Below the pieces are notes generated by a model. The model was not told where the DNA came from. It did no database searches and saw only the letters and a list, made by a program, of their open reading frames with translations. A DNA stretch of 42,951 bases from contig CAZIEA010000004.1 in the NCBI GenBank assembly GCA_964538495.1, positions 4,262-47,212 of the forward strand. The letters are read 5' to 3'. The translations under genes and the position numbers were made by a program. Within the stretch, counting starts at the first letter, position 1, and each line of letters opens with the position of its first letter. Origin of the DNA: an uncultured bacterium. Its GTDB lineage: Bacteria > Auribacterota > Erginobacteria > Erginobacterales > DAOSXE01. Positions 6,001-37,665 of this stretch are shown in pieces.

Positions 6001-9000
6001 GGGCCGGGTGCCAGGTGGGCAGTTCCCGCCAGCCCGAGTTCTGCACGGCCGGTGAGTTGAAAAGCGGGGAGGTGTCGATCTGGAAGTAGTAGGGCTCGGT
6101 ATTGAGTCCGGCGGGCGAATCGGAGGCAATGAGAGCCGTCAGGGTGGTGGAGACGGGTTCCCGGGGACTCCCGTCGGCGGGAAGGCGGCAGCCGACATTG
6201 ATGGGAGGGGTATTGTCCACGATGAAGAAGCCGCTGATGTCTTCGGTAAAGAAAGCCGGTCCGCCGGGAGAGGAGATCTTGACGCGGTAGTCGGTGTTGT
6301 CGCCGGCGGCCGACAAGGTGTTCCAGCTCGAGTAGGTTCCGGTGATGTAGGAGAGACCGGAGGTGATTTCGAAGAAGGAAACTCCGTTCGTGGTGTATTC
6401 CAGGCGCACCGTGTCGGCGGGGAGCCAGCCGTCCCCGTGGGAGGACCAGGCAATCTCGTGGCTCCGGCTCCACTTCTCGGTCCCCCAGGGGCTGCCCAGG
6501 GGAGAGGAGAGGGAGAGAGTCTTCAGGCCGGATCGGGAGGCCTCGGAGGTGTTCCCATAGGTCCCGATGTTTATTCTCCCCCCGTTGGGGGAGAGTTCCA
6601 GGGAATAGTCGTTATCCGGGTTGCCCTTGTTCAGGCCGGGGCTGTTGACCGCGTCCACGACCCATTTTCCGTTCAGGAACCTTCCTTCCGTGCTCCGGAG
6701 GTGGAAATCCCCGCCGGCGGGGTCGTAGAAAAGTGGATTGGCGGAGACTCCGTGGCCGTCTTGTCTGCTGGCGTTGCGCCAGGCCTCGAAAGTGGATCGA
6801 GCCGCTCCCCAGAAGGCCAGGTCGGCCCCGCTCAGGACGTAATAGAGGTTGTAATCGGCGGTGTGGCCGTGGGCCGAGGGACTGGGGGTTTGGAAGTAAA
6901 GCCCGGTATTTCCCGCTCCCTCGACCCAGAAGATGTTGTTGGAAAACTCCGTGTTGTAGGTGCTGTTGATTACGTACACGGCCCGGGTCGTATTCCGGTA
7001 GAAGACATTGTTCCTGATTTGCAGGTTATTGCAGGCGGTCAGGTAGATCCCGATGCCGGTTATTTCCCGGAGCAGGTTGTTGGCCAGCAGGCAGTCATTC
7101 GAGGTGTCGAGCGAGATGCCGGTATTCCCCGCGCAGGTGTTTCCGGAGACGGTTTGATTGTGGTTGCGGTAGAGCCGGATCCCGCTGGTGGCGTTGGCGG
7201 CGACTTGGTTGTTGATTATCGTGGCCGGCGACCAGTAACAGTAGATTCCGCTTCCGCCGTTAGAGAGGCAGGAGTTGTCCTGGATGAGATGGCCGCCGCC
7301 GCCCGAGTAAATGTATATCCCCTGCCCGGAGTTTTCCGAGACGGTGTTCCCCTTGATTTGCGCGGTCGCCCCCAGGTAAAAGTAAATGCCGTGGCTCTGG
7401 TTATCCTGGACTATGTTCTCCTTGAGTTCGGGATAGTCCGTGCTCTGGTTGCAGTAAATCCCGGCGCCTTTGTTGAGGAGGACCTGTGTGTCGCGGATTA
7501 GCGTGCGCTTGGACTCGGAAACGTAGATGCCGTTGTCCCCGGAAGTGGTGACGCGGCAGCCGGAAATGGACAGATAGTCCGACCGGTAGACAGTAACTCC
7601 CGCCTGCCCCGCGTTGATGAACTGAAACCCGTTCAGGGATACGTAAGGGGCGGAGCTTACCCCGAGGCAGTAAGCCAGGGTGCCGCCGCCGTCGAGAACG
7701 CTGCCTTCCGGAGAACCGGTCAGGGTAATCGGATTGTCGGCGCTGCCCGTCCCCCTGATGATCAGCAGGGCCGACGGCGTGTAAAGGCCGGTGTCCACGA
7801 AGACCGAGTCTCCCGCGGTCAGGGTGTAGTGATCCAGCACCGCCTCCACGGAGTCGAGCGGGCTGGCGGGGCTCAAGCCGTTGTGGGCGGGCCAGGGGAG
7901 GCCGGAGGTGGAGCAGAAGTAATCGTATTCGACGGAAGAATCGTTGACGTAGAAGTTGCGCCCGGTCTTGCCCGGGGCGCGGGAGGCTCCCGGGGTGTTG
8001 CCGTAGGCGCCCAGGTTGACCCTGCCCCCGTTGGGGGCGGTCTCCAGGCCGTAAGGGGAAGCGGGGTCCCCCCGGTCCAGCCCCGGGGAGTTGCTCCCGT
8101 CCGCGCTCCAGCCGAAACCGGGTTTCCAGCTTCCGGTGGTGCTCTGGAGCCGGTAGTTGCCGCCCCCGACGAAGAGGGGGTTGGCACTGATGCTGTCGGC
8201 GTCTCCCCCGGAGGCCCCGGTCCAGGCCGCGAAAGCGGCTTGGGTGGCGGAATTCCAGTAGCCGACCGAGGCGGGGGCGGTGGCAAAAAGGTCGTTGTAG
8301 TCGGAATCGAAGCCGGCCTGGCTCTCGGGTTCGACGAAGATCGCGATCTGCCCCCCGGTCCCGGTTGCCCAGGCGATGTTGTTGCGCAGCACGGCGTAGC
8401 TGGAGCCGTTCAAGCCGGTGTCTTCCAGGTGGATTTCCCGGGTTCCGTTATTGGCGCAGGTGTTGTTGGTCAGTTCGGAGGAGTAGCTGGAAATCAGGCG
8501 GATACCGGAGAGAGTGTTGTTGTGGACAAGCATATTGCGGATGATGGTGTAGTCGCCGCTGGTCTCGATTCCAGAGCCGCCGTTCAGGAAAGACCTTCCT
8601 CCCTGGAGGGTGACGTGGTCGCCCTCGATTCGGATGCCGCTGTCGGTGGCGCCGGTAAAGGCGAAGTTCTCGACCTGGAACCAGTCCCCGGTCACCCGCA
8701 GGCAGTTGAGGGCGGTCCCGTTGCCGTCCAGGAGGACTTCCCCGTTCAAGCCCACGATCCGGACCGGGGAACCCTCCGCCCCCTCGTCGGCGGGGGAGAG
8801 GAGCATCGGCTCGCTCAGGGTGTAGCTTCCCGGGGCGACATAGACGATATCCCCCTGGGAAAGATCGTGGTTCTGCAGGATCCAGCGCAAGCCGTCGGTG
8901 GTCGCGGTGGCTTCGCTCGGCTCCACCGTGAGGGCGTGGTAGATACTTTGGGTCCGGAAGTAGCGGTAGGTCCCCGGAGAAGTGGTTTCCGCCTGGAACT

Positions 9001-11594: not shown

Positions 11595-11831
11595 TTCACA
11601 TGTAGACATGTAGGGCATGTAGAAAATCAAATGCTGTCCACAGATTTCACAGATTTAAACTTCATGTTCTTCATGTCCTTCATGGTGAGAAAAGCAGGCT
11701 GAAGGAACTCACACCCCATACCCCATGCCTCATACCCCATTACACGGATTACTGATTACGGATTACGTTTGGTTTTCCTGATTCCTGACTCCTGTTTCCC
11801 GACCCTATGCTCTATGCCCTATGCTCTATGC
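11595..11831. repeat. mosaic of short tandem word repeats in the divergent intergenic region
   Basis: In order: CATGTAG x3 block (11595-11626), CACAGATTT x2 (11635-11656), TTCATGTYC x3 (11660-11685), GGCTGAAG, CATACCCC-type x3 (11712-11740), GGATTAC/TGATTAC x3 (11744-11767), TCCTGAY x3 (11775-11794), CTATGCYC x4 (11803-11831). The same words recur in at least 14 other intergenic regions of this window. Confidence 0.9.
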
Positions 11832-11870
11832 TTAAATGTAAGCGCTATCGCCAATTTTCCCATGACCGGC

Positions 11871-13653: not shown

Positions 13654-15120
13654 ATGGAGTATGATTTCATGTATCCCAGGACATTGACGGGGTTGGTAAT
13701 TTTTCTGTTATTGGGCTTGGGGCCCGACGCCACCCGCGCCGCCGAGGACACCGAAGCGCAGGAAGCCGTCGTCCTGGAAATTATCGAAGAAGAAACGGCC
13801 TTGCGGGAAGCCGCCGGGGAACAGATCGCCCCGGTTCCGGAAGAAGAGGGCGCCCCGGTGCCTGCCCGGCCCGCCCAGAGGGCCCGCTACTTCTACCGCA
13901 GGGGGCTGGAAGCCTACGATTCGGGGGACTGGAAAGGGGCGATCGCCAACCTCGATCAGGTGGTGGCGATCAACCCCTCCTACCGGCGGGCCGACTATTA
14001 CCGCAGGGAGGCCTGGAACCTGGCGGCGGCGTCCGTCCCCGCCGGGGCCGAGGCGGAGATCCTGGTCGAGGACCTCCGGGCCGAGTTCGAACGGGGCCGC
14101 GCTTCCCTGCGCGCGGAGGATTACGCCGCCGCGGTGGTTTCTTTCCAGACCGTGCTCCAGGTCAACCCTTCCCACCGGGAGGCCCGGAATCTCCTGGGCG
14201 AAGCCCGGCTCAAGCTGGAAAAACGCTCCCTGGCCGAGGAAGAGTCCCTGGCCCAGGAACTTGTCAAGGAAGAGATCGAGCTCCGGCAGACGGCCCAGTC
14301 GGAAGAGGACGAAGCTCTCCGCCGGGCCTACGACGAGGGACGCACCGCCCTGGAGCGGGGGGAGTTGGAGGCGGCGGAGGCGAGTTTCACCGAGATCCGT
14401 CGGAAGCGGGGCGATTACCGCCGGGGCGACTATTTCCTGCGCCGGATCGACCGCGAGATTCAGGCCAAGCACGAGGCGGACCTGGCTCTCAGCGACCGGG
14501 AGGCGATCCGGCAATACACCCTGGGCCCGGACGATGTGGTCCGGGTGGTGGTGCGCAACCACCCCGAATTCAGTTTCGGCGCCCGGATCGAGGAAGGAGG
14601 GGAACTCGTCATCCCCCTCACCAACGAGATCATCCAGGCCGACGGCCTGACCCGGGACGAGCTGGCCGAACTCCTGCGCCAGCGGATCGCGGCCTACATT
14701 GACGACCCCTTCGTCAAGGTCTTCATTACCAACTACGGGAGCAAGAAGTTCTACGTCCTCCAGCCCGAAGGGGGCGGGTCGGAATACATCATGAGCAAGG
14801 CCAACATGACCCTCTGGGACTGCATGTTCCTGGCCGGGATCCCGATGCTCGACGATGCCGCCCTGCGCCGGATTCAGGTCATTCCCCCCCATCCCACCCA
14901 TCCCACCCACCGCTGGATCAACGTTTACGCCATGCTCTACCAGGGCAAGATGAAGGACAACATCCGCATCGAGCCCGGGACCATCATCTACTACCCGATG
15001 CTGGTGATCGACAAGTTCAGCATGATCGTGGAGAAGATCACCAAGCCGATCTCCGACCTGGCCAGCCTGGGAAGCTCCTACGAGGAGTGGGACAGCTTCC
15101 GCAAGAAGTACCTGAGGTGA
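13654..15120 (+). CDS. polysaccharide export protein (Poly_export/Wza-like domain) with a long N-terminal helical/TPR-like extension
   Basis: Signal-like N-terminus LTGLVIFLLLGLGPDATRAA. The C-terminal half has YTLGPDDVVRVVVRNHPEFSF...GGELVIPLTNEIIQADGLTRDELAELLRQRIAAYIDDPFVKVFITNYGSKKFYVLQ, a classic Poly_export motif. The ATG at 13669 has a better-placed GGAG, so the start is uncertain by 5 codons. Confidence 0.8.
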   Translation: MEYDFMYPRTLTGLVIFLLLGLGPDATRAAEDTEAQEAVVLEIIEEETALREAAGEQIAPVPEEEGAPVPARPAQRARYFYRRGLEAYDSGDWKGAIANLDQVVAINPSYRRADYYRREAWNLAAASVPAGAEAEILVEDLRAEFERGRASLRAEDYAAAVVSFQTVLQVNPSHREARNLLGEARLKLEKRSLAEEESLAQELVKEEIELRQTAQSEEDEALRRAYDEGRTALERGELEAAEASFTEIRRKRGDYRRGDYFLRRIDREIQAKHEADLALSDREAIRQYTLGPDDVVRVVVRNHPEFSFGARIEEGGELVIPLTNEIIQADGLTRDELAELLRQRIAAYIDDPFVKVFITNYGSKKFYVLQPEGGGSEYIMSKANMTLWDCMFLAGIPMLDDAALRRIQVIPPHPTHPTHRWINVYAMLYQGKMKDNIRIEPGTIIYYPMLVIDKFSMIVEKITKPISDLASLGSSYEEWDSFRKKYLR

Positions 15121-15125
15121 GGCCG

Positions 15126-15280
15126 GCGGATCGCCGTTCCTACGGAACGGCTTGCAGTATCGTCACTCCTGGCGGAGTGACTTGCAGGATCGTCTCGACT
15201 GCGTCGAGACTTGTAGTATCGTCCCTCGCCTTGCTCGGGACTTGCGGTATCGCCGCTCCCTTGAGGGGAGCGGCTTGCAA
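15126..15280 (+). repeat. hairpin-unit array 1 (5 units, forward orientation)
   Basis: Units of 29-30 nt: head TTGYRGTATC followed by GCCGTTCC-tac-GGAACGGC, GTCACTCC-tggc-GGAGTGAC, GTCTCGAC-tgc-GTCGAGAC, GTCCC..GGGAC and GCCGCTCCC-ttga-GGGGAGCGGC. Begins 6 nt after the stop at 15120. Confidence 0.9.
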
Positions 15281-15330
15281 CTTTAGGCCTTATGCCCTAT
15301 GCTTTCATAGGCTGAAGGACCCGACGCTGC

Positions 15331-15566
15331 ATTCACATGTAGACATGTAGGACATGTAGAAAGGCTGAAGATTTTTTTCACAGTTTAACCGCGAATCCAA
15401 GGGCCACGGATCACGGATCACTGATTACGGATTACGATTTTCCCTGAACCCTGAACCCTGTATCCTGGGTTTCGACGGATTACGGATCACTGATTACGGA
15501 TTACGATTTTTCCTGAACCCAGACCCCTGAACGCAACCTACATGTTCTACATGTCTACATGTGAAT
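15331..15566. repeat. MITE-like 236-bp unit bounded by 29-nt inverted CATGTAG blocks
   Basis: ATTCACATGTAGACATGTAGGACATGTAG (15331-15359) matches the reverse complement of 15538-15566 at 28 of 29 positions. The interior holds only word repeats (GGCTGAAG, GGATYAC x8, CCTGAAC x4) and has no coding capacity. Confidence 0.8.
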
Positions 15567-18082: not shown

Positions 18083-18298
18083 TGCCTTGTGTGTTCCCCG
18101 GCCTTGTTGTTGTTATCGGAGTTCAGGCTGAAGGCTGAAGACTGAAGTCTGACGGCCCCGCCGCACCGATTGAACCGCGAATCTCGCGAATCCCCACAAA
18201 TCAAAGCGACGGATTACGGATCACTGATTACGGTTTGACCCTATGCTCTATGCCCTATGCTCTATGCTTAACAACGACAACGAATCGGGAACAAGAAC
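18083..18298. repeat. word-repeat mosaic including a 74-nt conserved module
   Basis: CCTTGTKGTT words, GGCTGAAG x4 (18125-18152), module 18160-18233 (70 of 74 identical to 23550-23623), CTATGCYC x4, then CGACAA words up to the ATG at 18299. Confidence 0.9.
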
Positions 18299-19330
18299 AT
18301 GAAGATACTGATCACGGGGGGAGCGGGATTCATCGGCTCTAACGCCGCCGCCCGGGCCCTGGCCCGGGGCGACGAAGTCACCGTCCTGGACGACCTTTCC
18401 CGGGCGGGGACTGCTCTCAACCTGAAATGGCTCCGGAGCCTGGGGAAGTTCCGCTTCGAGAAGATCGATATCCGCGACTACCGGCCTCTGCGGGAGCTCC
18501 TGGCGGAAGGGAAGTTCGACGCCATCTACCATCTCGCCGCCCAGGTGGCGGTGACCACCTCGGTGTCCGACCCCCGGACCGACTTCGAGATCAACGCCCT
18601 GGGGACCTTTAACCTCCTGGAGGCGGCCCGCGAGACCTCCCAGGACGGGGCTATCCTCTTCTCCTCCACCAACAAGGTCTACGGGAACCTCGAGGACATG
18701 CCGGTGGTGGAACGCCCGACCCGTTACGCCTTTTCCGGGGAAAAGGCCGCCGTCTCCGAGGAACAGCCCCTCGACTTCCATTCCCCTTACGGTTGTTCCA
18801 AGGGCGCCGCCGACCAGTACGTCCGGGACTACGCCCGCATTTACGGCCTTAAGACCGCGGTCCTGCGCCAGTCCTGCATTTACGGCCCCCGCCAGTTCGG
18901 GATCGAGGACCAGGGCTGGGTGGCTTGGTTCGTGATCGCCGCCCTGACCGGTCGCCCGATCACCGTTTACGGGGACGGCAAGCAGGTCCGGGACATCCTC
19001 TACATGGACGACCTCCTCGATGCCTTCGACCTCGCCGCCGCCAAGATCTCCAATTGCGCCGGGAGCGTCTTCAACCTCGGCGGCGGCCAAGCCAACACCC
19101 TTTCGCTCCTGGAGTTCTTCGGAATTCTGGAAAATCTGCTGGGCCGGAAGATCGAATACGCCTTTTCCGACTGGCGCCCGGGGGACCAGAAGATCTACGT
19201 CAGCGACATCGCCCGGGCCCGGAGTGCGTTGGGATGGAGTCCCCGGGTTTCGCCCCCGGAAGGCATTAAGCGCCTTTACGATTGGGTTTCCGAAAACATA
19301 CTTCTGATCGGGAAAGCCCTCGAGGCATAA
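18299..19330 (+). CDS. NAD-dependent epimerase/dehydratase (extended SDR, CDP-paratose 2-epimerase-like)
   Basis: MKILITGGAGFIGSN Rossmann motif and SPYGCSKGAADQY catalytic YxxxK. 343 aa. Confidence 0.85.
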   Translation: MKILITGGAGFIGSNAAARALARGDEVTVLDDLSRAGTALNLKWLRSLGKFRFEKIDIRDYRPLRELLAEGKFDAIYHLAAQVAVTTSVSDPRTDFEINALGTFNLLEAARETSQDGAILFSSTNKVYGNLEDMPVVERPTRYAFSGEKAAVSEEQPLDFHSPYGCSKGAADQYVRDYARIYGLKTAVLRQSCIYGPRQFGIEDQGWVAWFVIAALTGRPITVYGDGKQVRDILYMDDLLDAFDLAAAKISNCAGSVFNLGGGQANTLSLLEFFGILENLLGRKIEYAFSDWRPGDQKIYVSDIARARSALGWSPRVSPPEGIKRLYDWVSENILLIGKALEA

Positions 19331-19424
19331 CCGCTTCTTCGGCCCGGATGGTTTGGTTTAAATGTTGCCTTTGCCTAATCAAAATCGGGGCAATTCAGCC
19401 GGTTCGCGTCCGGGCGGCCCTTTT

Positions 19425-20159
19425 ATGTCCGTCATCATTCCCGCCCGGAACGAGGAGCATAATGTCGAAAAGACGTGCCGGGCCGTTGCCGGCGAATTCA
19501 AGGCCCATGGAATCGAAGACTGCGAAATACTCCTGGTAAACGATCACAGTTCGGACAAAACGCTCGAGACGCTCGCCCAGCTCAGCCGTTCGCTGCCGGG
19601 GGTGAGATACGTCGACAATGACGGCAGCCCCGGTTTCGGGATGGCGGTCCGCCTCGGGCTGGAGAAATCCCGCGGCGAAACGGTTTGCATCATGATGGCC
19701 GACCTCTCCGACTCGCCTTCCGACCTCCGCCGGTATTATGACGAGCTCCAGCGCGGGGCCGAGTGCGTGTTCGGCTCGCGTTTCATCAAGGGCTCCAGGA
19801 TATCCGGCTATCCTTTCCCCAAGTTGGTCTTGAACCGTTCGGTCAACTGGCTCATAAAACTGGTGTTCAAAATCCCCCATAATGACATTACCAATGCGTT
19901 CAAAGCCTATCGCCGCGAGGTTATTTCGGGAGTGAGCCCGCTCTTGTCGCACCATTTCAATTTGACGGTTGAGCTTCCCTTGAAAGCGATAGTCCGCGGC
20001 TACCGCTATACTACGGTTCCGATCTCATGGACTAACAGGGTGGAAGGGATTTCCAAACTGAAGATTAAGGAAATGGGCAGCCGCTACCTGTTCATCATCT
20101 TGTACGTTTGGCTGGAGAAACTTCTTTCGCGCGGCGATTACCGGCGACGGGGCGTGTAG
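19425..20159 (+). CDS. family 2 glycosyltransferase (polyprenol-phosphate sugar synthase-like)
   Basis: Start trimmed to the ATG at 19425 (MSVIIPARNEEHNV...LLVNDHSSD). C-terminal hydrophobic segment YLFIILYVWLEKLL. The TAG stop (20157-20159) lies inside the TGTAGTATC head of array 2. Confidence 0.8.
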   Translation: MSVIIPARNEEHNVEKTCRAVAGEFKAHGIEDCEILLVNDHSSDKTLETLAQLSRSLPGVRYVDNDGSPGFGMAVRLGLEKSRGETVCIMMADLSDSPSDLRRYYDELQRGAECVFGSRFIKGSRISGYPFPKLVLNRSVNWLIKLVFKIPHNDITNAFKAYRREVISGVSPLLSHHFNLTVELPLKAIVRGYRYTTVPISWTNRVEGISKLKIKEMGSRYLFIILYVWLEKLLSRGDYRRRGV

Positions 20160-20335
20160 TATCGTCGCTCCCGCGGAGCCGCATGTAGTATCGTCGCTCC
20201 TGCGGAGCGACTTGTAGTATCGTCGCTCCTGCGGAGCGACTTGTAGTATCGCCGCTTCTGCGAAGCGGCTTGCAGTATCGTCGCTCCTGCGGAGCGACTT
20301 GTAGTATCGCCGCTCCCCTGGAGCGGCTTGTAACA
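20157..20335 (+). repeat. hairpin-unit array 2 (6 units of 29 nt, forward)
   Basis: TTGTAGTATC followed by GTCGCTCC-tgc-GGAGCGAC (x3-4), GCCGCTTC-tgc-GAAGCGGC and GCCGCTCC-cct-GGAGCGGC. The period is a strict 29 nt. Confidence 0.95.
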
Positions 20336-20363
20336 GCAGCCTTAATTGTTGGATTATGGGGTC

Positions 20364-20756
20364 ATGAAATTCAAGTATGAGGAGCTCGAGATCTGGAAGG
20401 TGGCTCTGAACATGGCCAGGGTCGTTTTTGCGATATTGAAGAAATATCCGGACGACGAGAAATTCGGTCTGGTTTCTCAAGGCCGGAGGGCGGTGGTATC
20501 CATAGCCCTGAACATATCCGAGGGCAGCGGCAGGAAAACCAACAGGGATTTTTCGGTTTTCATCAACCGGGCATTATCTTCGTTGCAGGAGACGGATGCG
20601 GTTTTAAAGATCGGCCTGGCGATGCAGTACATCAGGGATGCCGACTACGCCGAGGCGGATCCTTTGTTGAAAGAAGAGTATTTCAAGTTGATTGCCTTCG
20701 ACAAAAAACTGCGTGAAGACCTTACATACGTGCGCGGCTACAGTTCCCTGAAGTAA
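20364..20756 (+). CDS. four-helix-bundle protein (23S rRNA intervening-sequence protein / Avd-like family)
   Basis: MKFKYEELEIWKVALNMARVVFAILKKYPDDEKFGLVSQGRRAVVSIALNISEGSGR...LSSLQETDAVLKI matches the family signature (ExW, QxRRAxxSIxxNIAEG) as I remember it. GC is visibly lower than in the neighbouring genes. Confidence 0.8.
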   Translation: MKFKYEELEIWKVALNMARVVFAILKKYPDDEKFGLVSQGRRAVVSIALNISEGSGRKTNRDFSVFINRALSSLQETDAVLKIGLAMQYIRDADYAEADPLLKEEYFKLIAFDKKLREDLTYVRGYSSLK

Positions 20757-20782
20757 ACTCTTCAACTCCGAGGATTGCGGCT

Positions 20783-20937
20783 TGCAAGGCCGCCGGAGGC
20801 GGCCGATACTACAAGCCCCGAGCGAAGCGAGCGGCGATACGACAAGTCCCGAGCAGGGCGAGGGACGATACGACAAGCCCCGACGCAAGTCGGGGCGATA
20901 CGGCAAGCCTTGAGCAGGGCGAGGGGCGATACGACAG
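20783..20937 (-). repeat. hairpin-unit array 4 (5 units, reverse orientation)
   Basis: Hairpin followed by GATACKACAAG, e.g. GGCCGCC-ggag-GCGGCC, GTCCCGAG-caggg-CGAGGGAC, GCCCCGAC-gcaa-GTCGGGGC. It is inverted relative to array 2 across the four-helix-bundle gene. Confidence 0.9.
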
Positions 20938-20957
20938 TTTTCAACCGGGAGAAAAAA

Positions 20958-21761
20958 ATGGACCAGTTATCCGAGTTGGAAAGCAAGAGCATCTACATTA
21001 TCCGGGAGGCCTACTACCAGTTCAAGGACATCGCGGCCCTCTGGTCGATCGGGAAGGATTCCACCACCCTGATCCACCTCTGCCGCAAGGCCTTTTACGG
21101 GGAAGTCCCCTTCCCGATGATGCACATCGACACCGGCTACAAGTTCCCGGAGATGTACCGTTTTCGGGACGAATACGCCAAGAAGTGGGGGATCCGGCTG
21201 ATCGTGACCCGCAACGAGGAGGCGATTGCCGCCGGGATGGGCCCTAACGTGGGGGAGAAGCTCGCCTGCTGCAACCAGCTCAAGACCAACGCCCTGAAAC
21301 TGGGGATCGCCAAGCACGGTTTCAAGGCTTTGCTCCTGGGCATCCGGCGCGACGAGCACGGGATCCGGGCCAAGGAGCGCTATTTCTCCCCCCGCAACGA
21401 GCAGTTTCAGTGGGACTACGAGAACCAGCCCCCGGAGCTCTGGGACCAGTACAAGTCCAAGGCCGCCGACGAGGAGCACATCCGGGTCCACCCTCTCCTG
21501 CACTGGACCGAGCTCAATATCTGGGAATACGTGAAACGGGAGAATCTGCCCATCACCGAGCTCTACTTCGCCAAAAACGGCAAGCGCTTCCGCTCCATCG
21601 GCTGCGTGCCCTGCTGCTCCCCGGTGGAATCCGAGGCCGACACCATCGACAAGATCATCGAGGAACTCAAGACCACCAAGGTCTCCGAGCGCGCCGGCCG
21701 CGCCCAGGACAAGGAGTCGGTGACGACCATGCAAAAACTCCGGGCCCTCGGCTACATGTAA
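20958..21761 (+). CDS. cysD: sulfate adenylyltransferase subunit 2
   Basis: Start trimmed to the ATG at 20958 (GGGAGA 8 nt upstream). The track's N-terminal extension runs through array 4. PP-loop WSIGKDSTTL and C-terminal ERAGRAQDKE...MQKLRALGYM. Confidence 0.9.
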   Translation: MDQLSELESKSIYIIREAYYQFKDIAALWSIGKDSTTLIHLCRKAFYGEVPFPMMHIDTGYKFPEMYRFRDEYAKKWGIRLIVTRNEEAIAAGMGPNVGEKLACCNQLKTNALKLGIAKHGFKALLLGIRRDEHGIRAKERYFSPRNEQFQWDYENQPPELWDQYKSKAADEEHIRVHPLLHWTELNIWEYVKRENLPITELYFAKNGKRFRSIGCVPCCSPVESEADTIDKIIEELKTTKVSERAGRAQDKESVTTMQKLRALGYM

Positions 21762-21813
21762 CCGCGTAACCACATAACCACTAATCTCGCTAATCCTCGC
21801 TAAAGGGAAAGCG

Positions 21814-22218
21814 ATGTGTCTACTGTATAAAGAGGAGGTGTACAAGCTAATCGGTGCGGCCATGGAAGTTTATAACTTGCTGGGCAATGGGTTCTTGGAA
21901 TCCGTGTACCAGGAAGCTTTGGAATATGAGTTGGATTTGAGAGGAATCCCTTATAAAGCCCAAGAGATGTTGCAGATCAAGTATAAGGACAAGATGCTTG
22001 AACATGCCTATAAGGCGGATCTGGTTCTTATGGATAAAATTATCGTGGAATTGAAAGCTATGGAAAAATTAGGCAGGAATGAGAAGGCGCAGATCATTAA
22101 TTATCTCAAGGCAACCAACCTTGAATTAGGGGTGTTGATAAATTTTGGGGCTAAGAACGATCTCGAATGGAAGAGAATGATATTGTCAAAAAACATGCCG
22201 TTAGAACCGGAAGTATAG
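21814..22218 (+). CDS. GxxExxY protein (PD-(D/E)XK nuclease-like small protein)
   Basis: LGNGFLESVYQEALEYEL...YKADLVLMDKIIVELKAME...AQIINYLKATNLELGVLINFG carries the GxxExxY motif and a D..ExK core. Clearly AT-richer than the flanking cysD and cysN. Confidence 0.8.
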   Translation: MCLLYKEEVYKLIGAAMEVYNLLGNGFLESVYQEALEYELDLRGIPYKAQEMLQIKYKDKMLEHAYKADLVLMDKIIVELKAMEKLGRNEKAQIINYLKATNLELGVLINFGAKNDLEWKRMILSKNMPLEPEV

Positions 22219-22290
22219 ATTGGTGCAGATTTGCGAGATTGGCGGTTAAAAAGCGGCGAGAAAAACCATAAAAATTAGCGGAGAAAAATC

Positions 22291-23532
22291 ATGAATAATC
22301 TTAGGTTTGTGATGGTGGGCCACGTGGACCACGGGAAGTCGACCTTGATCGGACGCCTTCTCTACGACACCGAGTCCCTGCCCCCGGACAAGATGGAGGA
22401 AATCCGGACCGCCTCCCAGGAGCAGGGAAGGGACGTCGAGTTTGCCTACGTGATGGACCACCTGGAGGAGGAGCGGGCGCGCAACATCACCATCGACACC
22501 GCCCAGACCTTCTTCCGGACCCCGCGCCGGGAATACGTGATCATCGACGCTCCCGGGCACAAGGAGTTCCTGAAAAACATGATCACGGGCGCCTCCCAGG
22601 CTGAAGCCGCGGTCCTGATCGTGGACGCCGCCGAGGGAGTGCGGGAGCAGACCCAGCGCCACGCCTTCATGATCGACATGCTCGGGCTGGAGCAGCTCAT
22701 CGTGGTGGTCAACAAGATGGACCAGGTCGGCTACGGGCAAAAGCGGTTCGAGCAGGTTAAGAGTAACCTCAACGAGTTCCTGGGCAAGGTCAACCTGAAA
22801 CCGACCTACGTCATCCCGATCTCGGCCAAGAACGGCGAGAACGTTTCCAACCGCTCCCAAAACATGCCCTGGTACACGGGGGTGACCTTCCTGGAGGGGC
22901 TCGATTCTTTCGTCAACCTGCCCTCCTCCCTGGAAAAGCCGCTGCGCTTCCCGGTCCAACTCGTGCACGAGATTGCCGGGGAAAAAGTCCTGATGGGCCG
23001 GGTCGAGGCCGGGCGGCTCCGCCGGGGCGGGGAGATCGTCTTTCTGCCTTCCGGGAAGAAGGCGAAGGTGAAAAATATCCTCGAGTTCGGGACCAAGGGG
23101 AAAGAAGAAGCCTCCGCCGGGGAGTCCGCCGGCATCGTCCTGGATCAAGCGCTCCCGGTGGGGCGGGGCGAGGTGGGGGCCGAACCGGGCCAGGAGCCGC
23201 CTTCGGCCGACCGTTTCGCGGCTTCCGTGTTCTGGATGTCGCCGGCGCCCTTCCGGATGGGGGAGAAGATCCTGCTGCGGGTGGCCACTGAGGAAGTCCC
23301 CGCCGAGATCGAAACCATCGCGGAGCGGATGGATTCCTCGACCCTGGAGATCCTCCAAAGGGGCGCTTCCGTCCTCAACGACACCGAGGCCGGGGAGGTG
23401 ACGATCCGGACCTCTCGCCCCGTGGTGGTGGAGTCCTTCTACAAGACCAAGGAGCTGGGGCGCTTCGTCCTGGTCCGGCGCAACGACGTCGTCGCCGGCG
23501 GCATCATTGCCCATAGCGTGCGCCGGTCGTAG
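22291..23532 (+). CDS. cysN: sulfate adenylyltransferase subunit 1 (GTPase), no fused APS-kinase domain
   Basis: GHVDHGKSTL (G1), DAPGH (G3), NKMD (G4). 413 aa, so too short to include a CysC fusion. Confidence 0.9.
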   Translation: MNNLRFVMVGHVDHGKSTLIGRLLYDTESLPPDKMEEIRTASQEQGRDVEFAYVMDHLEEERARNITIDTAQTFFRTPRREYVIIDAPGHKEFLKNMITGASQAEAAVLIVDAAEGVREQTQRHAFMIDMLGLEQLIVVVNKMDQVGYGQKRFEQVKSNLNEFLGKVNLKPTYVIPISAKNGENVSNRSQNMPWYTGVTFLEGLDSFVNLPSSLEKPLRFPVQLVHEIAGEKVLMGRVEAGRLRRGGEIVFLPSGKKAKVKNILEFGTKGKEEASAGESAGIVLDQALPVGRGEVGAEPGQEPPSADRFAASVFWMSPAPFRMGEKILLRVATEEVPAEIETIAERMDSSTLEILQRGASVLNDTEAGEVTIRTSRPVVVESFYKTKELGRFVLVRRNDVVAGGIIAHSVRRS

Positions 23533-23533
23533 C

Positions 23534-23660
23534 GCAGGGCTTCAGCCCTGCCGCACTGATTGAACCGCGAATCTCGCGAATCCACACAAATCAAAGCGAC
23601 GGATTACTGATCACTGATCACGGATTACGTTGGTTCTCCTGAACCCTGAACCCTGAACCC
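23534..23660. repeat. hairpin plus 74-nt module plus CCTGAAC words
   Basis: GCAGGGC-ttca-GCCCTGC (23534-23551) sits 2 nt after the cysN stop and occurs inverted at 41035-41052. Module 23550-23623 duplicates 18160-18233. CCTGAAC x3 at 23638-23660. Confidence 0.9.
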
Positions 23661-23665
23661 TCCGG

Positions 23666-24859
23666 TTGTATAGGCAGCTTGTCATCACGGTCGCGGCGGC
23701 GGCGGCGATCTACTCGGCCTGGCGGGTCTTTCCCGTCCTGGACGGGAAAGAGCAGTACGACTTCCGGACCTATTACTGGGCCGCCGCCGCCTTGGAGAAG
23801 GCCCTCGACCCCTACGAGGTCGCATCCCTCCGGGAAGTCTCCGGCCGCCCGATCTTTTTGACCTACATTTATCCCCCCTATACTCTGGGGCTGTTCCGGC
23901 CCCTGGTGCGGCTGGGGTACTCCCGGGCCTACGGGCTGTTTTTCGGGCTCAAGCTCGTTGCCCTCGGTTTCCTGATCCTGATCTGGGCCCGGGTCGTCCC
24001 GACGGGAAGACGGGGACTCTGGGCCGTGGCGGTCACCGCCCTGCTCGGCTACAAGGGCGCGGCCTTGCGGGACCTGGTCGCGGGGAATCTCTCGATTTTC
24101 GAGCAGGTCCTGATCTGGGGCGGGATCTGCCTGCTCCTGCGCGGCCGGGCCCTCCCGGGCGGGATCGTCCTCTTTCTCTCCGGAACGGTAAAGCTGGTGA
24201 CCTTGGCCCTGGGCCCGCTGGTTTTCGTGATCGGCCGCCGCCGCCGGGATCTCTTTCTCTGGCTGGGTCTCACGGCCGCCGCCGGCTTGCTGGTCCTGGG
24301 TTCCTATTTTTCCCGGCCGGGGGCCTGGCGTAGCTTTTATTCCTCGATGACCAAAGTCTCCTTTTTCGAGACCGGGGATCTCAACCCCAGCTCCCTGGCT
24401 TTCCTCAAGGACGTATCCGGGCGGCTGGGGGCGGGGGCAACATTTCCGGTTGTCACTTATGCGTTCTGGTCCGCCCTGGTCCTGGCGGCCTGGTTTTGGG
24501 CGTTCCGGAAGACCTTCGCTTCCGCGGACCGGCTCCCCATGGTTTACCTGACCGTCCTGGCCTATGTCCTGGTCTCCCCCAAGATGAAGGATTATTCCCT
24601 GCTTATCGCCGCCCTCCCGACCCTGCACGCGATCTGCGCGGTCCTGCCCGGGCGCTGGCGGCTGTTCGGCTGCGCCCTGCTCTGGATTCCCCTCTTCCCC
24701 TACCAGGGGTTATTGCTGGCCGCCGGGACGTTTTTCCTCCTCCTGCTCTGGGTCCGGCTTCACCGGGGCGATCCTGGGGCCAAGCTGGCCTCCTGCCTCG
24801 ATCCCCTCGAGTTCCTGAAAGACTGTCGGATCGACCCTCGCTGTGCTCGGGACTTGTAG
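23666..24859 (+). CDS. polytopic membrane glycosyltransferase, GT87/DUF2029-like (polyprenol-phosphate-mannose-dependent type)
   Basis: TTG start. DFRTYYWAAAALEKALDPYE...YIYPPYTLGLFRPL and AGNLSIFEQVL...GTVKLVTLALGP resemble DUF2029 motifs. The last ~12 codons and the TAG stop (24857-24859) lie in hairpin array 3. Confidence 0.65.
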   Translation: MYRQLVITVAAAAAIYSAWRVFPVLDGKEQYDFRTYYWAAAALEKALDPYEVASLREVSGRPIFLTYIYPPYTLGLFRPLVRLGYSRAYGLFFGLKLVALGFLILIWARVVPTGRRGLWAVAVTALLGYKGAALRDLVAGNLSIFEQVLIWGGICLLLRGRALPGGIVLFLSGTVKLVTLALGPLVFVIGRRRRDLFLWLGLTAAAGLLVLGSYFSRPGAWRSFYSSMTKVSFFETGDLNPSSLAFLKDVSGRLGAGATFPVVTYAFWSALVLAAWFWAFRKTFASADRLPMVYLTVLAYVLVSPKMKDYSLLIAALPTLHAICAVLPGRWRLFGCALLWIPLFPYQGLLLAAGTFFLLLLWVRLHRGDPGAKLASCLDPLEFLKDCRIDPRCARDL

Positions 24860-25116
24860 TATCGTCCCTCGCCTTGCTCGGAACTTGCCGCATCGCCGCG
24901 CCTCCCGGCGCGGCTTGCATCCCTATGCTCTATGCCCTATGCTTAAAAACTACAGGCTGAAGACTGAAGACTGAAGGCTGAAGGAACCGACGCCGCATTT
25001 CACATGTAGGCATGTAGGACATGTAGGTAAATTCGAAATTCAAATCCCCGAAACTCTCGCGCATTCTGGATTCTGAATTCTGACTCCTGACTCCTGTTTT
25101 TAAAAACCCTGAACCC
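24823..25116. repeat. hairpin array 3 (3 units, forward) followed by a word mosaic
   Basis: Hairpins GACCCTCG..CTCGGGAC, GTCCC..GGAAC and GCCGCGCC-tccc-GGCGCGGC. Then CTATGCYC x3, GRCTGAAG x4, a CATGTAG x3 block (24998-27), TTCGAAAT words, TYCTGA x5 and CCTGAAC. Confidence 0.9.
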
Positions 25117-29777: not shown

Positions 29778-29950
29778 CATAGAGCATAGGGCATAGAGCA
29801 TGTTCTACATGCCTACATGTGAATGGCGGCAAGCCGCTCCGGAGGAGCGGCGATACTACAAGTCCCGAGCACAGCGAGGGACGATACTACAAGCCGCTTC
29901 GTAGAAGCGGCGATACTGCAAGTCACTCCGTCAGGAGTGACGATACGACA
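29774..29950 (-). repeat. reverse CTATGC block, reverse CATGTAG block and hairpin array 5 (4 units, reverse)
   Basis: GCATAGRG x3 (29777-29798) and CTACATG x3 (29799-29824). Then GCCGCTCC-gga-GGAGCGGC, GTCCCGAG..CGAGGGAC, GCCGCTTC-gta-GAAGCGGC and GTCACTCC-gtca-GGAGTGAC, each followed by GATACKRCAAG. Confidence 0.9.
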
Positions 29951-36443: not shown

Positions 36444-37277
36444 ATGAGGAACTGGAGATATGCCGCCGGGCGCCTTTTCCCCACCGTTCGAGGCTTTGTC
36501 CGGTGCATTGTTCGCTCTCCCCGGATTGCCCGGCAGGTTTTTTCCGCCTCCCTTCATTACGCCCTGACCGGGCGGATGTCCTCTGCGGTCGTCGTCGAGA
36601 AAGGCTACCGTATCGAAGACCCCAAGGAGCTGGTGGGTTACTTGGCCCACTTTGTCGAGGAAGAGGTCGAAGCCCGGGAATGGCTTATCCCTTTCCGACG
36701 GGCCCAAGCCCCTGTCTGCCTGGACGTGGGCGGCCACGCGGGCATCTTTTCCCTCAAACTGCTTTGCGAGAACCCGGCCGCGCTGGTTTATGCCTTCGAG
36801 CCCCAGCCCGACCTCGCCCGCAAGGCTTCCCAGGCTCTTGCTTCCGAAAGCTCCAGGTATCGCTGTTTCCCCCTGGCCGTCTCCGACGCGCCCGGGAAGA
36901 CCAGGCTTTACCGGGATTCGATAGACAACTCCCAGGCCAGCCTGGAACGGAGCTGGCGGCCGGAAGCGGAGGAGGTCCTGGAAGTCGAGACGGTTACGCT
37001 CGACGCGGCGGCCGCCGACCTGGGGAACATATTTCTTCTGAAAATAGATGTCGAGGGGCACGAGGCCAGGGTTTTAGCGGGGGGGAAGGGAACCCTGAAG
37101 CGCACCCGTTTCGTCCTGGTGGAGATACTTTCGGAAGAAAGTCTGCGCCGCTGCCGGTCCATTTTAGGACCCGGGTGGAAGGAGAAAAAGATCGGGCGGG
37201 GGGATTATCTTTTCGAGGCCAAAACGACTGTCGTATCGTCACTCCCGGCGGAGAGCAATTCACATGTAGGCATGTAG
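36444..37277 (+). CDS. FkbM family methyltransferase
   Basis: CLDVGGHAGIFSL...AFEPQP...KIDVEGHEARVL. The last ~17 codons (TTVVSSLPAESNSHVGM) are a degenerate hairpin unit plus a CATGTAG block, and the TAG stop at 37275-37277 is inside that block. Confidence 0.8.
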   Translation: MRNWRYAAGRLFPTVRGFVRCIVRSPRIARQVFSASLHYALTGRMSSAVVVEKGYRIEDPKELVGYLAHFVEEEVEAREWLIPFRRAQAPVCLDVGGHAGIFSLKLLCENPAALVYAFEPQPDLARKASQALASESSRYRCFPLAVSDAPGKTRLYRDSIDNSQASLERSWRPEAEEVLEVETVTLDAAAADLGNIFLLKIDVEGHEARVLAGGKGTLKRTRFVLVEILSEESLRRCRSILGPGWKEKKIGRGDYLFEAKTTVVSSLPAESNSHVGM

Positions 37278-37665
37278 AACATGTAGAAAGGCAAATTCGA
37301 AATCAGAATGACGAAATTCGAAACCGCGTGGTCGTTGTCGTGTTTCGGCATAGAGCATAGGGCATAGGGACGCAACTCCAGGCTGAAGGAACTGCCGCTG
37401 CATTCACATGTAGACATGTAGGGCATGTAGAAAACCAAGAGCATTTTCACGCAAAGACGCAAAGACGCCAAGGAACGGATCGTTCACCAACCTTTTTGCT
37501 CTTGGCGACGGGTTCTGCAAGCCGCGACGACAGGAGCGGCGATACGACAAGTCCCTAGGCGAAGCCGAGGGACGATACTACAAGTTCCGAGCGGAGCGAG
37601 GAACGATACTGCAAGTCATTCCGCAGGAATGACGATACGGCAGTTTTGTTCTGAACCCTGAACCC
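37217..37665. repeat. large repeat mosaic between the FkbM gene and the wecB 3' end
   Basis: Degenerate hairpin unit, CATGTAG block (37259-86), TTCGAAA words, reverse CGACAA and CTATGC words, GGCTGAAGG, 74-nt composite module (37402-37475), ~100-nt module (37448-37550, about 85% identical to 41867-41967), hairpin array 6 (4 units, reverse, 37515-37633), and CCTGAAC x2. Confidence 0.9.

Follow-up and report, generated by a model that had tools for sequence, protein, structure and literature searches.

A four-helix-bundle gene between inverted repeat arrays upstream of cysD: a probable selfish DNA cassette of the 23S intervening-sequence type

The 23S rRNA intervening sequences (IVSs) of Leptospira and Coxiella carry a gene of the PF05635 family between terminal inverted repeats. 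They are sporadic and horizontally patchy in their spread, are tolerated by the host and are regarded as selfish elements (PMC4990558). In the Coxiella IVS, the repeats that enclose the S23p ORF pair into a stem of 28 bp, at which RNase III cuts (PMC4990558). Insertions in CPR rRNA also carry the PF05635 family, and 23S_rRNA_IVP genes have been reported wedged inside cas operons (PMC3936711). Several other systems are built of short repeats. REP/BIME elements with their RAYT (a Y1 HUH transposase) and the GTAG palindromes of Stenotrophomonas place a short head by a GC-rich palindrome, occur in tandem or inverted clusters near stop codons, and include genes flanked by inverted copies. A REP is an imperfect palindrome of 20-40 nt whose stem foot carries a conserved GTAG head; as far as is known, REPs are species-specific and follow their RAYT. 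In Tn7 and Mu, in the subterminal repeats of En/Spm and Ac, and in MITEs and their autonomous parents, the inverted ends have a short site repeated several times in direct orientation within about 150 bp. Cyanobacterial STRR heptamers and TAACTGA repeats are tandem repeats of 7-9 nt in 2-6 copies, which form mosaics and are horizontally patchy; for the intergenic TAACTGA repeats of Beggiatoaceae, Cyanobacteria and Bacteroidetes, 'no mechanism is evident' (PMC4679880). In the literature searched, mostly outside subscription journals, these repeats are described without a link to four-helix-bundle (4HB) genes, GxxExxY genes or inverted pairs, and no description of flanking arrays around PF05635 or GxxExxY genes was found.

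We analysed a 42,951-nt stretch of DNA (the window) in which a PF05635 gene lies upstream of cysD. The features of this locus are as follows.

19362-20159, + strand: GT2 glycosyltransferase gene, upstream neighbour (PF00535 at 5.8e-23)
20155-20332, + strand: forward array, left end of the cassette, six 29-nt units (TRF and fold predictions)
20333-20363, + strand: spacer from array to start codon, 31 nt (sequence)
20364-20756, + strand: 4HB gene, PF05635 23S_rRNA_IVP / TIGR02436, 130 aa
20787-20937, - strand: reverse array, right end of the cassette, five units of 27-31 nt
20958-21761, + strand: CysD gene, downstream neighbour (NF003587, 5e-109)

TRF reports the forward array with period 29, 6.1 copies, 87% matches and a score of 258, and the reverse array at 20799-20936 with period 31 and 4.5 copies; an extra 27-nt unit at 20787-20813 brings the latter to five. 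The six-unit forward and five-unit reverse arrays of a preliminary description are thereby confirmed, the profile matches establish the GT2 and cysD genes as same-strand neighbours, and the 4HB gene is indeed of low GC content (0.50-0.52 versus 0.60 for the window). The forward units follow the pattern TGTAGTATC-G[7 nt]-loop-[7 nt]C-T, three of the six being identical. Each consists of a head, (T)TG-Y-N-G-TATCG, and an 8-bp palindrome with a 3-nt loop; such stems and loops are predicted in five of the six units and are imperfect in the first (20155). Read on the minus strand, the reverse units begin with TGTCGTATCG, TGCCGTATCG, TGTCGTATCG, TGTCGTATCG and TGTAGTATCG. The right array thus has the head of the left array, reversed, and hairpin bodies unlike those of the left array. 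The tandem repeat head of this 4HB subfamily can be written (TTGCAGTATCG)n. With up to two mismatches, the head GTAGTATCGNCGC occurs 22 times in the window (2.2 expected; at most 11 in any of 100 shuffles). The GT2 gene runs into the first repeat head, which provides its TAG stop (20157-20159). The two arrays are the only repeats around the 4HB gene. Unlike 23S IVSs, the cassette sits in a spacer between protein-coding genes of a polysaccharide/sulfate operon and not in an rRNA helix, and its ends are five to six tandem units, not a single stem. No Rfam family reached its gathering score anywhere in the window, nor was any rRNA found there.

The 31-nt spacer leaves no room for a sigma-70 promoter of the cassette's own. 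A consensus scan found no + strand promoter-like site in 19300-22400, cassette included, + strand terminator-like matches in the cassette were no commoner than in shuffles, and sequence inspection showed no T-tract 3' of the array hairpins; on these grounds we rejected the arrays as an intrinsic terminator or promoter.

The 4HB protein matches TIGR02436 (4e-22, 78.5 bits, cut-off 24) and PF05635 (5e-26, 91.4 bits, cut-off 33.8). Its AF2 model (pLDDT 92.5) has four helices and is an up-down bundle like Xcc0516 and BT_0352. 2GSC (TM 0.85/0.94, rmsd 0.8), 2RLD (TM about 0.74/0.88) and bAvd 4DWL (TM 0.76/0.91) are the best PDB matches, and chains of the DGR RNP cryo-EM structure match as well. With scores above curated cut-offs and a fold matching 2GSC, 2RLD and 4DWL, the earlier assignment to the 23S-IVS/Avd-fold family holds. 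Both 2GSC and 2RLD have five chains in the crystal, and the title of the Xcc0516 paper speaks of five four-helix bundles in one assembly. The protein thus has in common with Avd, the nucleic-acid-binding protein of diversity-generating retroelements (DGRs), its fold and its pentameric relatives. Unlike Avd, to which its sequence is about 10% identical, it gives no match to the PF22296 (bAvd) profile and has no reverse transcriptase in the ORFs scanned. The family comprises about 11,000 clusters at 50% identity (single-sequence search), and to our knowledge it has no known catalytic activity. A check on phage vectors in IMG/VR found no relative of this 4HB subfamily. A scan of the cassette and of the window's 30 main ORFs found no transposase, integrase/recombinase or reverse transcriptase domain; lacking the last, the locus gives no support for a DGR, in line with the earlier view.

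We compared the cysD site among related genomes. The closest relative, L027, has amino acid identities of 98% for cysD, 97% for cysN, 94% for GT87 and 90% for the epimerase (DNA 93-94%). Its site is empty: the epimerase stop is followed by 23 nt and the cysD ATG, without arrays and without a 4HB gene. In L039, 8 nt stand in place of these 23 nt. The preliminary description had proposed a self-contained cassette, and the comparison agrees with it: upstream of cysD the gene and both arrays are present in the window, L001 and L036, neither is present in L027, L028 and L039, and no gene without arrays or arrays without the gene was seen at the site among these relatives. As with a transposon or MITE, this is a discrete element with inverted ends that is present or absent between close relatives. 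Unlike transposons, it encodes no transposase that we could find, its cargo is a 130-aa protein without known catalysis, and no target-site duplication was identifiable at the junctions compared. The polymorphic tract relative to L027 ends on the right at 20950/20951, and the difference also takes in the GT2 gene, which a tblastn map shows to be missing from L027, L028, L039 and L001, and ~110 nt at the 3' end of the epimerase gene. Hence, the difference from L027 could be a homologous-recombination tract and not a transposition.

The arrays belong to the element and not to the host site. Subfamily loci were read at 59-79% identity in hosts of 0.37-0.60 GC (WOR-3, Stahlbacteria and unclassified), and they have in common the head motif TTG-Y-N-G-TATCG. 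In all those with flanks read, the motif G[CT]NG[TG]ATC runs forward upstream and reversed downstream of the gene (counts per locus 6/3/2/2/0/1/3/3/2 upstream-forward and 6/4/3/3/1/5/4/4/4 downstream-reverse); the wrong orientation occurs downstream of L036 only, and the upstream flank of that locus is cut by a contig end. Among more distant 4HB genes (29-47% identity; Bacteroidota, Gemmatimonadales, CPR, Omnitrophota, Cyanobacteria), most have this inverted layout too, with other cores of 7-9 nt, and similar 4HB proteins go with shared cores across hosts. Comparing each upstream flank with its reverse-complemented downstream flank gives a mean of 12 shared 7-mers per locus, versus about 4 in control windows. 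Some 4HB subfamilies have plain 7-9-nt repeats without palindromes, and 4HB genes of Nostoc and Geminocystis plasmids have inverted heptamer arrays on both sides.

The cassettes of the subfamily occupy at least seven unrelated sites in different phyla. In some, cysD or accC follows the cassette; in others, acyl-CoA dehydrogenase genes lie on both sides or the gene of an AMP-binding enzyme precedes it. Distant family members lie between cas6 and cas4 (L110) and between parA and parB. The cassettes are nearly always co-oriented with both neighbours and occupy exactly the interval that separates the upstream gene's stop codon from the next ribosome-binding site (RBS), though some are antisense to both neighbours, or lie between convergent genes and flip. 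We considered the idea that the arrays insulate by stopping all three frames, as TAG/TGA heads at periods not divisible by 3 do in several cassettes only, and dropped it because arrays of GGGAACA, GGGAAAA, GTCGCCA and GGTCACC are free of stops.

The element is gained and lost in one piece, changes by whole-unit insertions and deletions, and can flip in place. Between strains whose 4HB proteins are identical, arrays differ in whole units and one hairpin loop is inverted. The whole cassette, inner array units included, was found in opposite orientations at one site. Here the closest host pair, L113 and L136 (AMP-binding 81%, 4HB 86%), differ in orientation and same-orientation pairs are more distant, which indicates that flips recur and take place in situ. 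Intergenic DNA also contains scattered solo ends and MITE-like derivatives that lack the gene. At L003, positions 4640-4840, four forward and four reverse units stand without an ORF, and the right array is nearly identical to that of a gene-bearing copy 1.3 kb away; a gene-less copy resembling this one lies at 5020-5260 of L005. No single genome looked at showed a recent multi-copy burst of identical full cassettes. In the window itself, array units are not confined to the 4HB gene, solo arrays of the same unit family being present at six other places. A second cassette of the same design is also found.

15130-15285, + strand: solo array, 4-5 units, ~10 nt after the stop of a polysaccharide-export gene (13654-15120)
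21760-22255, + strand: second cassette, GxxExxY / PDDEXK_3 gene between cysD and cysN
24824-24920, + strand: solo array, 3 units, with the TAG stop of the GT87 gene (23666-24859) inside a head
29829-29950, - strand: solo array, 4 units, upstream of the Wzy_C gene, without a 4HB gene
37229-37260, + strand: single unit of the same family
37516-37645, - strand: solo array, 4 units, directly 3' of the UDP-GlcNAc 2-epimerase gene on the minus strand (37671-38735) and oriented in its sense
41940-41967, - strand: solo array of the same unit family

The GxxExxY gene of the second cassette (21814-22218) has a GC content of 0.39 and is bordered by short tandem units in inverted orientation (TAACCAC / TAATCTCGC). 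In GxxExxY cassettes, the inverted ends match almost perfectly over about 30 bp. The array architecture was also found around a toxin-antitoxin pair (L033) and a Y1 transposase gene (L027).

Overall, we consider it probable, with moderate confidence, that 20155-20937 is a discrete selfish mobile DNA cassette of the 23S-IVS type, with the arrays as its cis-acting ends. Its likeness to MITEs and transposons extends to gene-less deletion derivatives, solo ends and nested insertions. The stop-to-RBS position, the co-orientation and the lack of a promoter or terminator of its own suggest that the cassette rides on host transcription and does little harm. The head motif would be a sequence-specific binding site, and a 4HB pentamer probably binds three to six tandem heads per end and joins the ends for recombination or for excision and insertion. 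We propose this because no factor other than 4HB accompanies the motif from phylum to phylum, the crystallised relatives of 4HB are pentameric, and Avd, of the same fold, binds nucleic acid. Since the 4HB protein has no known catalytic fold, breakage and joining would fall to host or trans-acting enzymes. The near-perfect Watson-Crick palindromes between the heads may act on DNA, as hairpins or cruciforms. Among 61 distinct palindrome bodies (439 bp), the unbiased set, G·U pairs make up 1.8% versus 14% in shuffles. In sixteen 8-bp stems, hand-picked for that length and counted at fixed positions, pairing holds at 127 of the 128 places, and 2-4 pair types occur at all but one of the eight positions. 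A near-absence of G·U would also be expected if the hairpins must fold as RNA in both orientations. The presence of unrelated cargo (GxxExxY, toxin-antitoxin, Y1) in the same architecture weakens the inference that the encoded protein reads the arrays, and co-variation of protein and motif can arise from linkage alone.

The arrays might instead exist to pair as RNA. RNase III would then cut the duplex, freeing the 4HB mRNA and splitting or insulating host messages, or the duplex would bring the upstream stop beside the downstream RBS. The Coxiella IVS, with an S23p ORF in a stem cut by RNase III, is a precedent (PMC4990558), and the co-oriented, promoterless cassettes that fill the space from stop to RBS exactly speak for this explanation, as do the near-perfect ends of GxxExxY cassettes. 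The preliminary description had named a fold without long-range pairing as evidence against such a role, and such pairing is present: the MFE fold of 20140-20950 has 77 array-to-array bp (about 80 expected in the ensemble; z-score -9.4), and a fold limited to spans of <=80 nt is 62 kcal/mol weaker than the unrestricted one. As in an IVS, the terminal inverted repeats can form a stem around the ORF, with an interrupted duplex whose longest unbroken helices are of 12, 8, 8 and 7 bp. The complementarity over about 150 nt described earlier stands in part: long-range pairing is predicted, but only the ~12-nt heads match and the hairpin bodies of the two arrays are unrelated. Even in the heads, three of the five downstream copies have a central A/G mismatch when paired with upstream heads. 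Nor is there wobble tolerance: once the downstream array is reverse-complemented, its mismatches to the upstream array include 13 of G·U type and 25 of A·C type, and 60 of the 98 are transversions. Pairing alone does not require an 11-nt head conserved across phyla. Solo arrays of one orientation and gene-less copies persist, and the cassettes that are antisense to both neighbours or flip between convergent genes also speak against it. Sense-strand duplex energies were slightly better in 17 of 27 loci (p = 0.024), a bias that we distrust given that the 200-nt flanks include coding sequence; the analysis by mismatch type, which is cleaner, pointed the opposite way. The earlier proposal that the arrays serve pairing and excision of mRNA is thus not supported: complementarity is confined to the heads, G·U tolerance is lacking, the local stems are almost purely Watson-Crick, solo arrays of one orientation persist, and the changes seen took place in DNA (cassettes present or absent, copies without the gene, gain or loss of whole units, and flips of the complete cassette). 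As array pairing bears no evolutionary signature, RNase III-type excision is possible but unsupported. We therefore hold an RNA-level function of the arrays to be unlikely; RNA processing may possibly be a side effect, as in rRNA IVSs.

Another explanation is a non-mobile regulatory module: acting on the arrays as operators or iteron-like sites, the 4HB protein would control its own expression or the flanking operon at the level of transcription, mRNA stability or translation, and the patchiness would be due to loss and homologous exchange between relatives. Several tandem sites suit an oligomeric binder. The tract that differs from L027 reaches into the epimerase gene, as homologous recombination predicts. 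The cysD-cysN spacer holds differing GxxExxY cassettes in related lineages, like the 'minimal mobile elements' of Neisseria, which are exchanged via flanking homology. However, the presence of the same subfamily at unrelated sites in different phyla calls for illegitimate insertion, and gene-less copies and solo ends have no regulator gene beside them. We find such a module improbable.

The arrays could also be ordinary REP/BIME elements mobilised by a RAYT elsewhere, with the 4HB gene merely lying between two clusters. A GTAG-containing head stands by a GC-rich palindrome (in five of the six upstream units, 4 nt from the stem), the units are single, tandem or inverted, near stop codons and dispersed in the window, near-pure Watson-Crick stems suit a DNA-hairpin substrate, and L027 has a Y1_Tnp gene (1.9e-28) flanked by REPs. 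But that RAYT is flanked by other palindromes (GCCCCCGCAGGGGGC), not by TTGTAGTATCG units, the window ORFs scanned contain no Y1_Tnp, and the gene inside the cassette is 4HB and not a Y1 HUH transposase. GTAG is not conserved in other hosts: GCAG or GTCG replaces it there and in other units, heads in other phyla are mostly GCAG, 4 nt from the stem foot, and some units are without any hairpin. Moreover, the motif follows the 4HB subfamily over hosts of 37-60% GC in a strict forward-upstream/reverse-downstream layout, and other 4HB subfamilies have repeats without palindromes. This makes a REP origin highly improbable. CRISPR-like or TIGR-like guide arrays were rejected: CRISPR arrays have identical repeats of 24-48 nt and unique spacers of similar length, but here the conserved part is about 11 nt and the 18-20-nt 'spacers' are palindromes that recur at other loci.

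Beyond this locus, we put forward, as a tentative idea that we rate as less likely than not, that inverted short-tandem-repeat arrays are the cis ends of a large, undescribed class of small mobile gene cassettes that spans phyla. Their cargo would be PF05635 4HB genes, GxxExxY PD-(D/E)XK genes and occasionally a toxin-antitoxin pair or Y1 transposase. Within its own cassette, the 4HB pentamer would bind the arrays and serve as the mobility or synapsis factor, and rRNA IVSs would be the special case of landing in rRNA. Heptamer or STRR-type mosaics in cyanobacteria, Bacteroidota, Beggiatoaceae and the present organism would be decayed or non-autonomous ends. The units here are of 29-31 nt, unlike STRR heptamers, because a palindrome is inserted between the heads. 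Such a class may explain the origin of puzzling short tandem repeats in bacterial intergenic DNA. If it is real, two puzzles become testable together: the role of the S23p protein and the movement of its element, a question since 1993, and the spread of STRR, TAACTGA and other heptamers. A 4HB protein that is a sequence-programmable binder of tandem motifs could also interest technology.

The cassettes matter for annotation as well. Genes of the 4HB family wedge into cas, acc, cys and par operons and are read as functional partners of their neighbours; the 23S_rRNA_IVP genes reported in cas operons fit cassette insertion, as does L110. An array can provide the stop codon of a host gene or pass for a CRISPR-like or REP array, and the cassettes lead gene callers to fuse ORFs. 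Long '4HB fusion' proteins, considered as hints to function, proved to be read-through into arrays or pilin genes and were uninformative. The window's intergenic DNA is a mosaic of short tandem repeats. A two-unit block like the array at 24824-24920 occurs at another locus of L027 (82.9% over 82 nt).

A gene flanked by inverted hairpin arrays, as reported in the preliminary description, was confirmed upstream of cysD, and the array coordinates given there agree with TRF. The cassette (20155-20937) lies in a polysaccharide-biosynthesis cluster (Wzz/GNVR, tyrosine-kinase-like ATPase, Poly_export, NAD-epimerase, several GT2, GT87, Wzy_C, CysDN) and comprises:

20155-20332, + strand, upstream array (TRF: period 29, 6.1 copies, score 258)
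20364-20756, gene of a four-helix-bundle (4HB) protein matching PF05635/TIGR02436
20799-20936, - strand, TRF part of the downstream array (period 31, 4.5 copies)

The upstream unit is TGTAGTATC-GTCGCTCC-TGC-GGAGCGAC-T, and variants such as GCCGCTTC/GAAGCGGC carry two-sided changes that keep the 8-bp stem. Read on the minus strand, the downstream region holds five units that begin with the same head as the upstream array (TGTCGTATCG three times, TGCCGTATCG and TGTAGTATCG once each); their palindromes are unlike the upstream ones (GCCCCGAC/GTCGGGGC, GGCCGCC/GGCGGCC and a GTCCCTCGCCCTGCTCGGGAC type). The GC content of the 4HB gene is ~9 points under the window mean, and its start codon follows the array after only 31 nt. 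Neither a consensus + strand promoter nor a convincing terminator was found in the cassette. An AF2 model of the protein (pLDDT 92.5) superposes on Xcc0516 (2GSC), BT_0352 (2RLD) and the DGR protein bAvd.

Searching metagenomes with CysD yielded at least 80 loci, which were mapped by tblastn. The closest relative, L027, shares 93–94% DNA identity with the window over the tyrosine-kinase-like, epimerase, cysD, cysN and GT87 genes. Its epimerase stop and cysD start are only 23 nt apart, with no GT2, array or 4HB gene in the gap. L028 is also empty upstream of cysD, and L039 has a compact operon (epimerase-8 nt-cysD-15 nt-cysN). L001 and L036 (cysD 80% and 90% identical) carry arrays and a 4HB gene immediately 5′ of cysD, their 4HB proteins being 75% and 67–68% identical to that of the window; the upstream neighbour in L001 is the epimerase gene, whose TAG stop lies inside the first head. 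At the cysD site of related loci, gene and arrays thus occur together or are both missing, neither being found alone, and the earlier reading of a self-contained cassette is well supported. The tract divergent from L027 extends from 19219 (epimerase 3′ end) to 20950, GT2 included, and may have been transferred by homologous recombination. Missing or replaced in L027 (2900-3030) are the final ~110 nt of the epimerase gene and GT2 in full (window 19219-20159), and we suggest that a more distant donor contributed GT2, with or beside the cassette, by recombination. GC in the GT2 3′ half falls to ~0.50.

We also looked at 4HB homologues elsewhere, running a close-homologue alignment against a single genome for each species (26 loci among the matches listed). 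All eight closest homologues (59–75% identity; WOR-3, Stahlbacteria and unclassified MAGs of 37–59% GC) have (T)TGCAG(T/G)ATC(G) units forward upstream and CGATACTGCAA units reverse downstream, many with palindromes of unrelated sequence. A regular-expression count in the closest loci found no wrongly oriented heads on either side except downstream in L036, and later-fetched loci follow the same rule. The eighteen more distant homologues mostly share the layout with other cores (TGAGATA, TAGACAT, AGTAC, GTCGCCA, GGTCACC, TTGTAGAG, GGGTTAG and others; periods 7–9 nt, 3–9 copies); the exceptions are L013, L020 and L024, with little or no array, and L012 and L015, with repeats in both orientations on each side. 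Plasmid 4HB genes of cultured cyanobacteria fit as well (GGGAACA/TGTTCCC in Nostoc edaphicum, GGGAAAA/TTTTCCC in Geminocystis); pCC7120alpha of Nostoc PCC 7120 has an array downstream only, and the two-sided arrays of Pseudanabaena (L110) are mostly direct. Comparing the upstream flank with the reverse-complemented downstream flank gave on average 12 shared 7-mers per locus, versus ~4 in same-locus control windows. Array cores are common to proteins of one cluster, even from different hosts. As judged from these comparisons, the arrays belong to the 4HB gene and not to the site. Overall, a selfish DNA cassette with the repeat arrays as its ends is the best explanation, in which we place moderate confidence, and recognition of the arrays by a protein would be its main link.

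In another lineage (L051, L053), the cysD-cysN spacer is occupied by another 4HB subfamily (32% identity to the protein of the window) between inverted TAGGGGT/TAGGGAT heptamer arrays. Database "4HB fusion" proteins (P0122, P0183; 320–362 aa, PF05635 plus prepilin N-methylation motif) look like gene-calling read-through from the cassette into a downstream pilin gene, and N-terminally extended 4HB versions probably start within the upstream array.

Excision of the cassette from mRNA, as proposed earlier, is plausible on energy. The predicted array-to-array duplex accounts for 77 pairs in the MFE structure of 20140-20950, besides 47 local array pairs (ensemble expectation ~80 array-to-array pairs), and a ban on pairs spanning >80 nt costs 62 kcal/mol. 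However, sequence evolution gives this proposal no support. The heads are the only sequence common to both arrays, and three of the five downstream heads form the 12-bp head duplex with a central A·G mismatch. When the upstream array is set against the reverse-complemented downstream array in 25 cassettes, the mismatches fall into 60 transversions, 25 of A·C type and 13 compatible with G·U. These evolutionary signals do not point to RNA pairing of the arrays. The local palindromes, by their sequences, are clearly maintained (61 distinct bodies, mean 7.2 pairs versus 4.2 in shuffles); among sixteen 8-bp stems picked by hand, 127/128 positions are paired and 7/8 positions show 2–4 pair types. 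G·U makes up 1.8% of palindrome pairs versus 14% in shuffled controls, which is the look of DNA palindromes and is also expected if hairpins must fold as RNA in both orientations.

Changes at the DNA level were found in several forms. L003 carries a gene-less copy in the next spacer, 1.3 kb from the full cassette, with four forward units followed directly by four reverse units, the ORF gone and the right array almost identical to that of the full copy; L005 has a similar one. At one site, bordered by the gene of an AMP-binding enzyme and a gene of 84 aa, the cassette occurs in either orientation as a whole, inner units too (L113 versus L121; L133 versus L136). Orientation tracks neither host nor 4HB phylogeny: it differs within the closest host pair, L113 and L136 (AMP-binding protein 81%, 4HB 86%), and pairs of like orientation lie further apart, which implies that the cassette has inverted in place more than once. 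L111–L120, with an identical 4HB protein, show whole-unit differences 120 nt upstream and 250 nt downstream of the gene (one unit more upstream in L116, L119 and L120, one fewer downstream in L111), and in L113 a hairpin loop is swapped for its own reverse complement (TTCATTAA to TTAATGAA). A two-unit block lies 3′ of cysN in L027, and a similar one (82.9% over 82 nt) 3′ of the window GT87 gene. Cassette hairpins are also insertion targets for other small elements. Together with the pairing signatures, this behaviour leads us to place the primary constraint on the arrays at the DNA level. By analogy with rRNA intervening sequences (IVSs), where RNase III processing has precedent (PMC4990558), such processing is a possible consequence of insertion.

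One nested element of ~110 nt, with terminal inverted repeats CCTTGTGAAATA ... TATTTCACGGGG, is inserted into the GGCGAGCC stem next to the 3′ end of the 4HB gene, and in L005 occurs in both the gene-bearing and the gene-less cassette:

L005, ~3305-3420 and 5155-5255
L006, ~3395-3500
L111–L120, ~3400-3505

L007 has a different insertion, of ~90 nt, in a hairpin loop of the upstream array.

From a WOR-3 genome of 37% GC to the present one of 60% GC, the 11-nt non-coding head stays conserved in surroundings that all change, and different 4HB subfamilies go with different motifs; this argues for sequence-specific recognition of the heads by something moving with the cassette. The 4HB protein is the only cassette-encoded candidate. 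Crystal structures of its relatives (2GSC, 2RLD) have five chains each, the title of the Xcc0516 paper names an assembly of five four-helix bundles, and Avd, which has the same fold, is a component of a ribonucleoprotein. A 4HB pentamer facing 3–6 tandem head sites would be a natural fit. The case is weakened because unrelated cargo has the same array architecture (GxxExxY/PDDEXK_3 genes, a DinJ/RelE-like pair in L033, a Y1 transposase with its REPs in L027): either every cargo protein reads its own ends, or one trans-acting system reads all.

A GxxExxY/PDDEXK_3 gene (21814-22218, GC 0.39; flanks 21760-22255) separates cysD from cysN in the window, between inverted short tandem units (GTAACCGC GTAACCAC ATAACCAC TAATCTCGC TAATCCTCGC on the left; TAACCGCC AATCTCGC AAATCTGC, as reverse complement, on the right). 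Nearly every occupied cysD-cysN spacer in relatives holds a GxxExxY gene with this architecture, the genes belonging to different subfamilies (38–77% identity), each with its own inverted ends of ~30 bp, made of three tandem 9-10-mers. L027 has a decayed copy, and one direct-repeat case occurs upstream of cysD in L032. In L033 (1520-2190), a DinJ/RelB antitoxin-like and RelE/YafQ toxin-like pair, assigned from sequence alone, lies between epimerase and cysD, bordered by inverted ACAGACGATTG / CAATCGTCTGT. Small selfish genes of several kinds make the spacer 5′ of cysD a hot spot.

Among known systems, we place the window cassette with the selfish elements of IVS type. ORF-bearing rRNA IVSs are its nearest relatives, sharing protein family, inverted termini and patchy distribution, but the cassette lies outside rRNA and has arrays for ends. 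Its behaviour resembles that of a transposon whose ends are multi-site and which has MITE derivatives, except that it encodes no transposase. REP/BIME-RAYT systems (RAYT, REP-associated Y1 transposase) are alike in unit form, but the RAYT test was negative in the window ORFs scanned, and the GTAG is not conserved in other hosts. L027 does carry a RAYT-like IS200-like Y1 transposase 5′ of the epimerase gene (975-1951; PF01797, 1.9e–28), bordered by REP palindromes GCCCCCGCAGGGGGC with GTAG-like tails and enclosed by outer inverted hexamer arrays (CGTAAT/CGTTGT); the corresponding place in the window contains nothing but ~150 nt of repeat modules. For 23S_rRNA_IVP genes reported to lie between cas genes (PMC3936711), cassette insertion fits better than a Cas function, and in L110 a 4HB gene with arrays lies between cas6 and cas4. 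STRR/heptamer intergenic repeats, of unexplained origin (PMC4679880), overlap as a kind with this cassette. The literature searched, of incomplete coverage, held no description of the array architecture.

Heads number 22 in the window versus 2.2 expected, and solo arrays with the same head occur at six further places. Five lie 3′ of a stop codon in the sense orientation of that gene, whose TAG stop is in two cases the TAG of the head; one lies 5′ of a start codon in reverse orientation. Mosaics of short tandem modules fill many of the window intergenic regions read (ACATGTAG x3, ACGGATT x3–4, CTATGCT x4, AGGCTGA x4, CCTGAAC x3–4, CACAGATTT x2, CTTCATG x3, CACGCAAAG x3 and others). Examples, all of 7-9-nt tandem modules, are:

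11598-11832
15335-15562
18125-18268
23565-23661
24923-25096
37262-37472
38754-38881
40781-41023
41769-42088

The intergenic modules have 2–5 copies each, occur in both orientations, and form composite blocks found again at several loci; CACAGATTT, ACGGATTAC and AACCGCGAATCTCGC match end sequences of the GxxExxY cassettes that relatives carry. As a tentative proposal, to which we give rather less credence, the cassette may represent a broad, undescribed mobile-cassette class that would explain these mosaics too.

Seven long + strand ORFs at 1-11000 of the window (e.g. 1721-2608, 6437-7501, 7829-9409) have no Pfam match at E ≤ 1e–4 and a codon-position GC pattern unlike that of the polysaccharide genes; their assignment as coding is uncertain.
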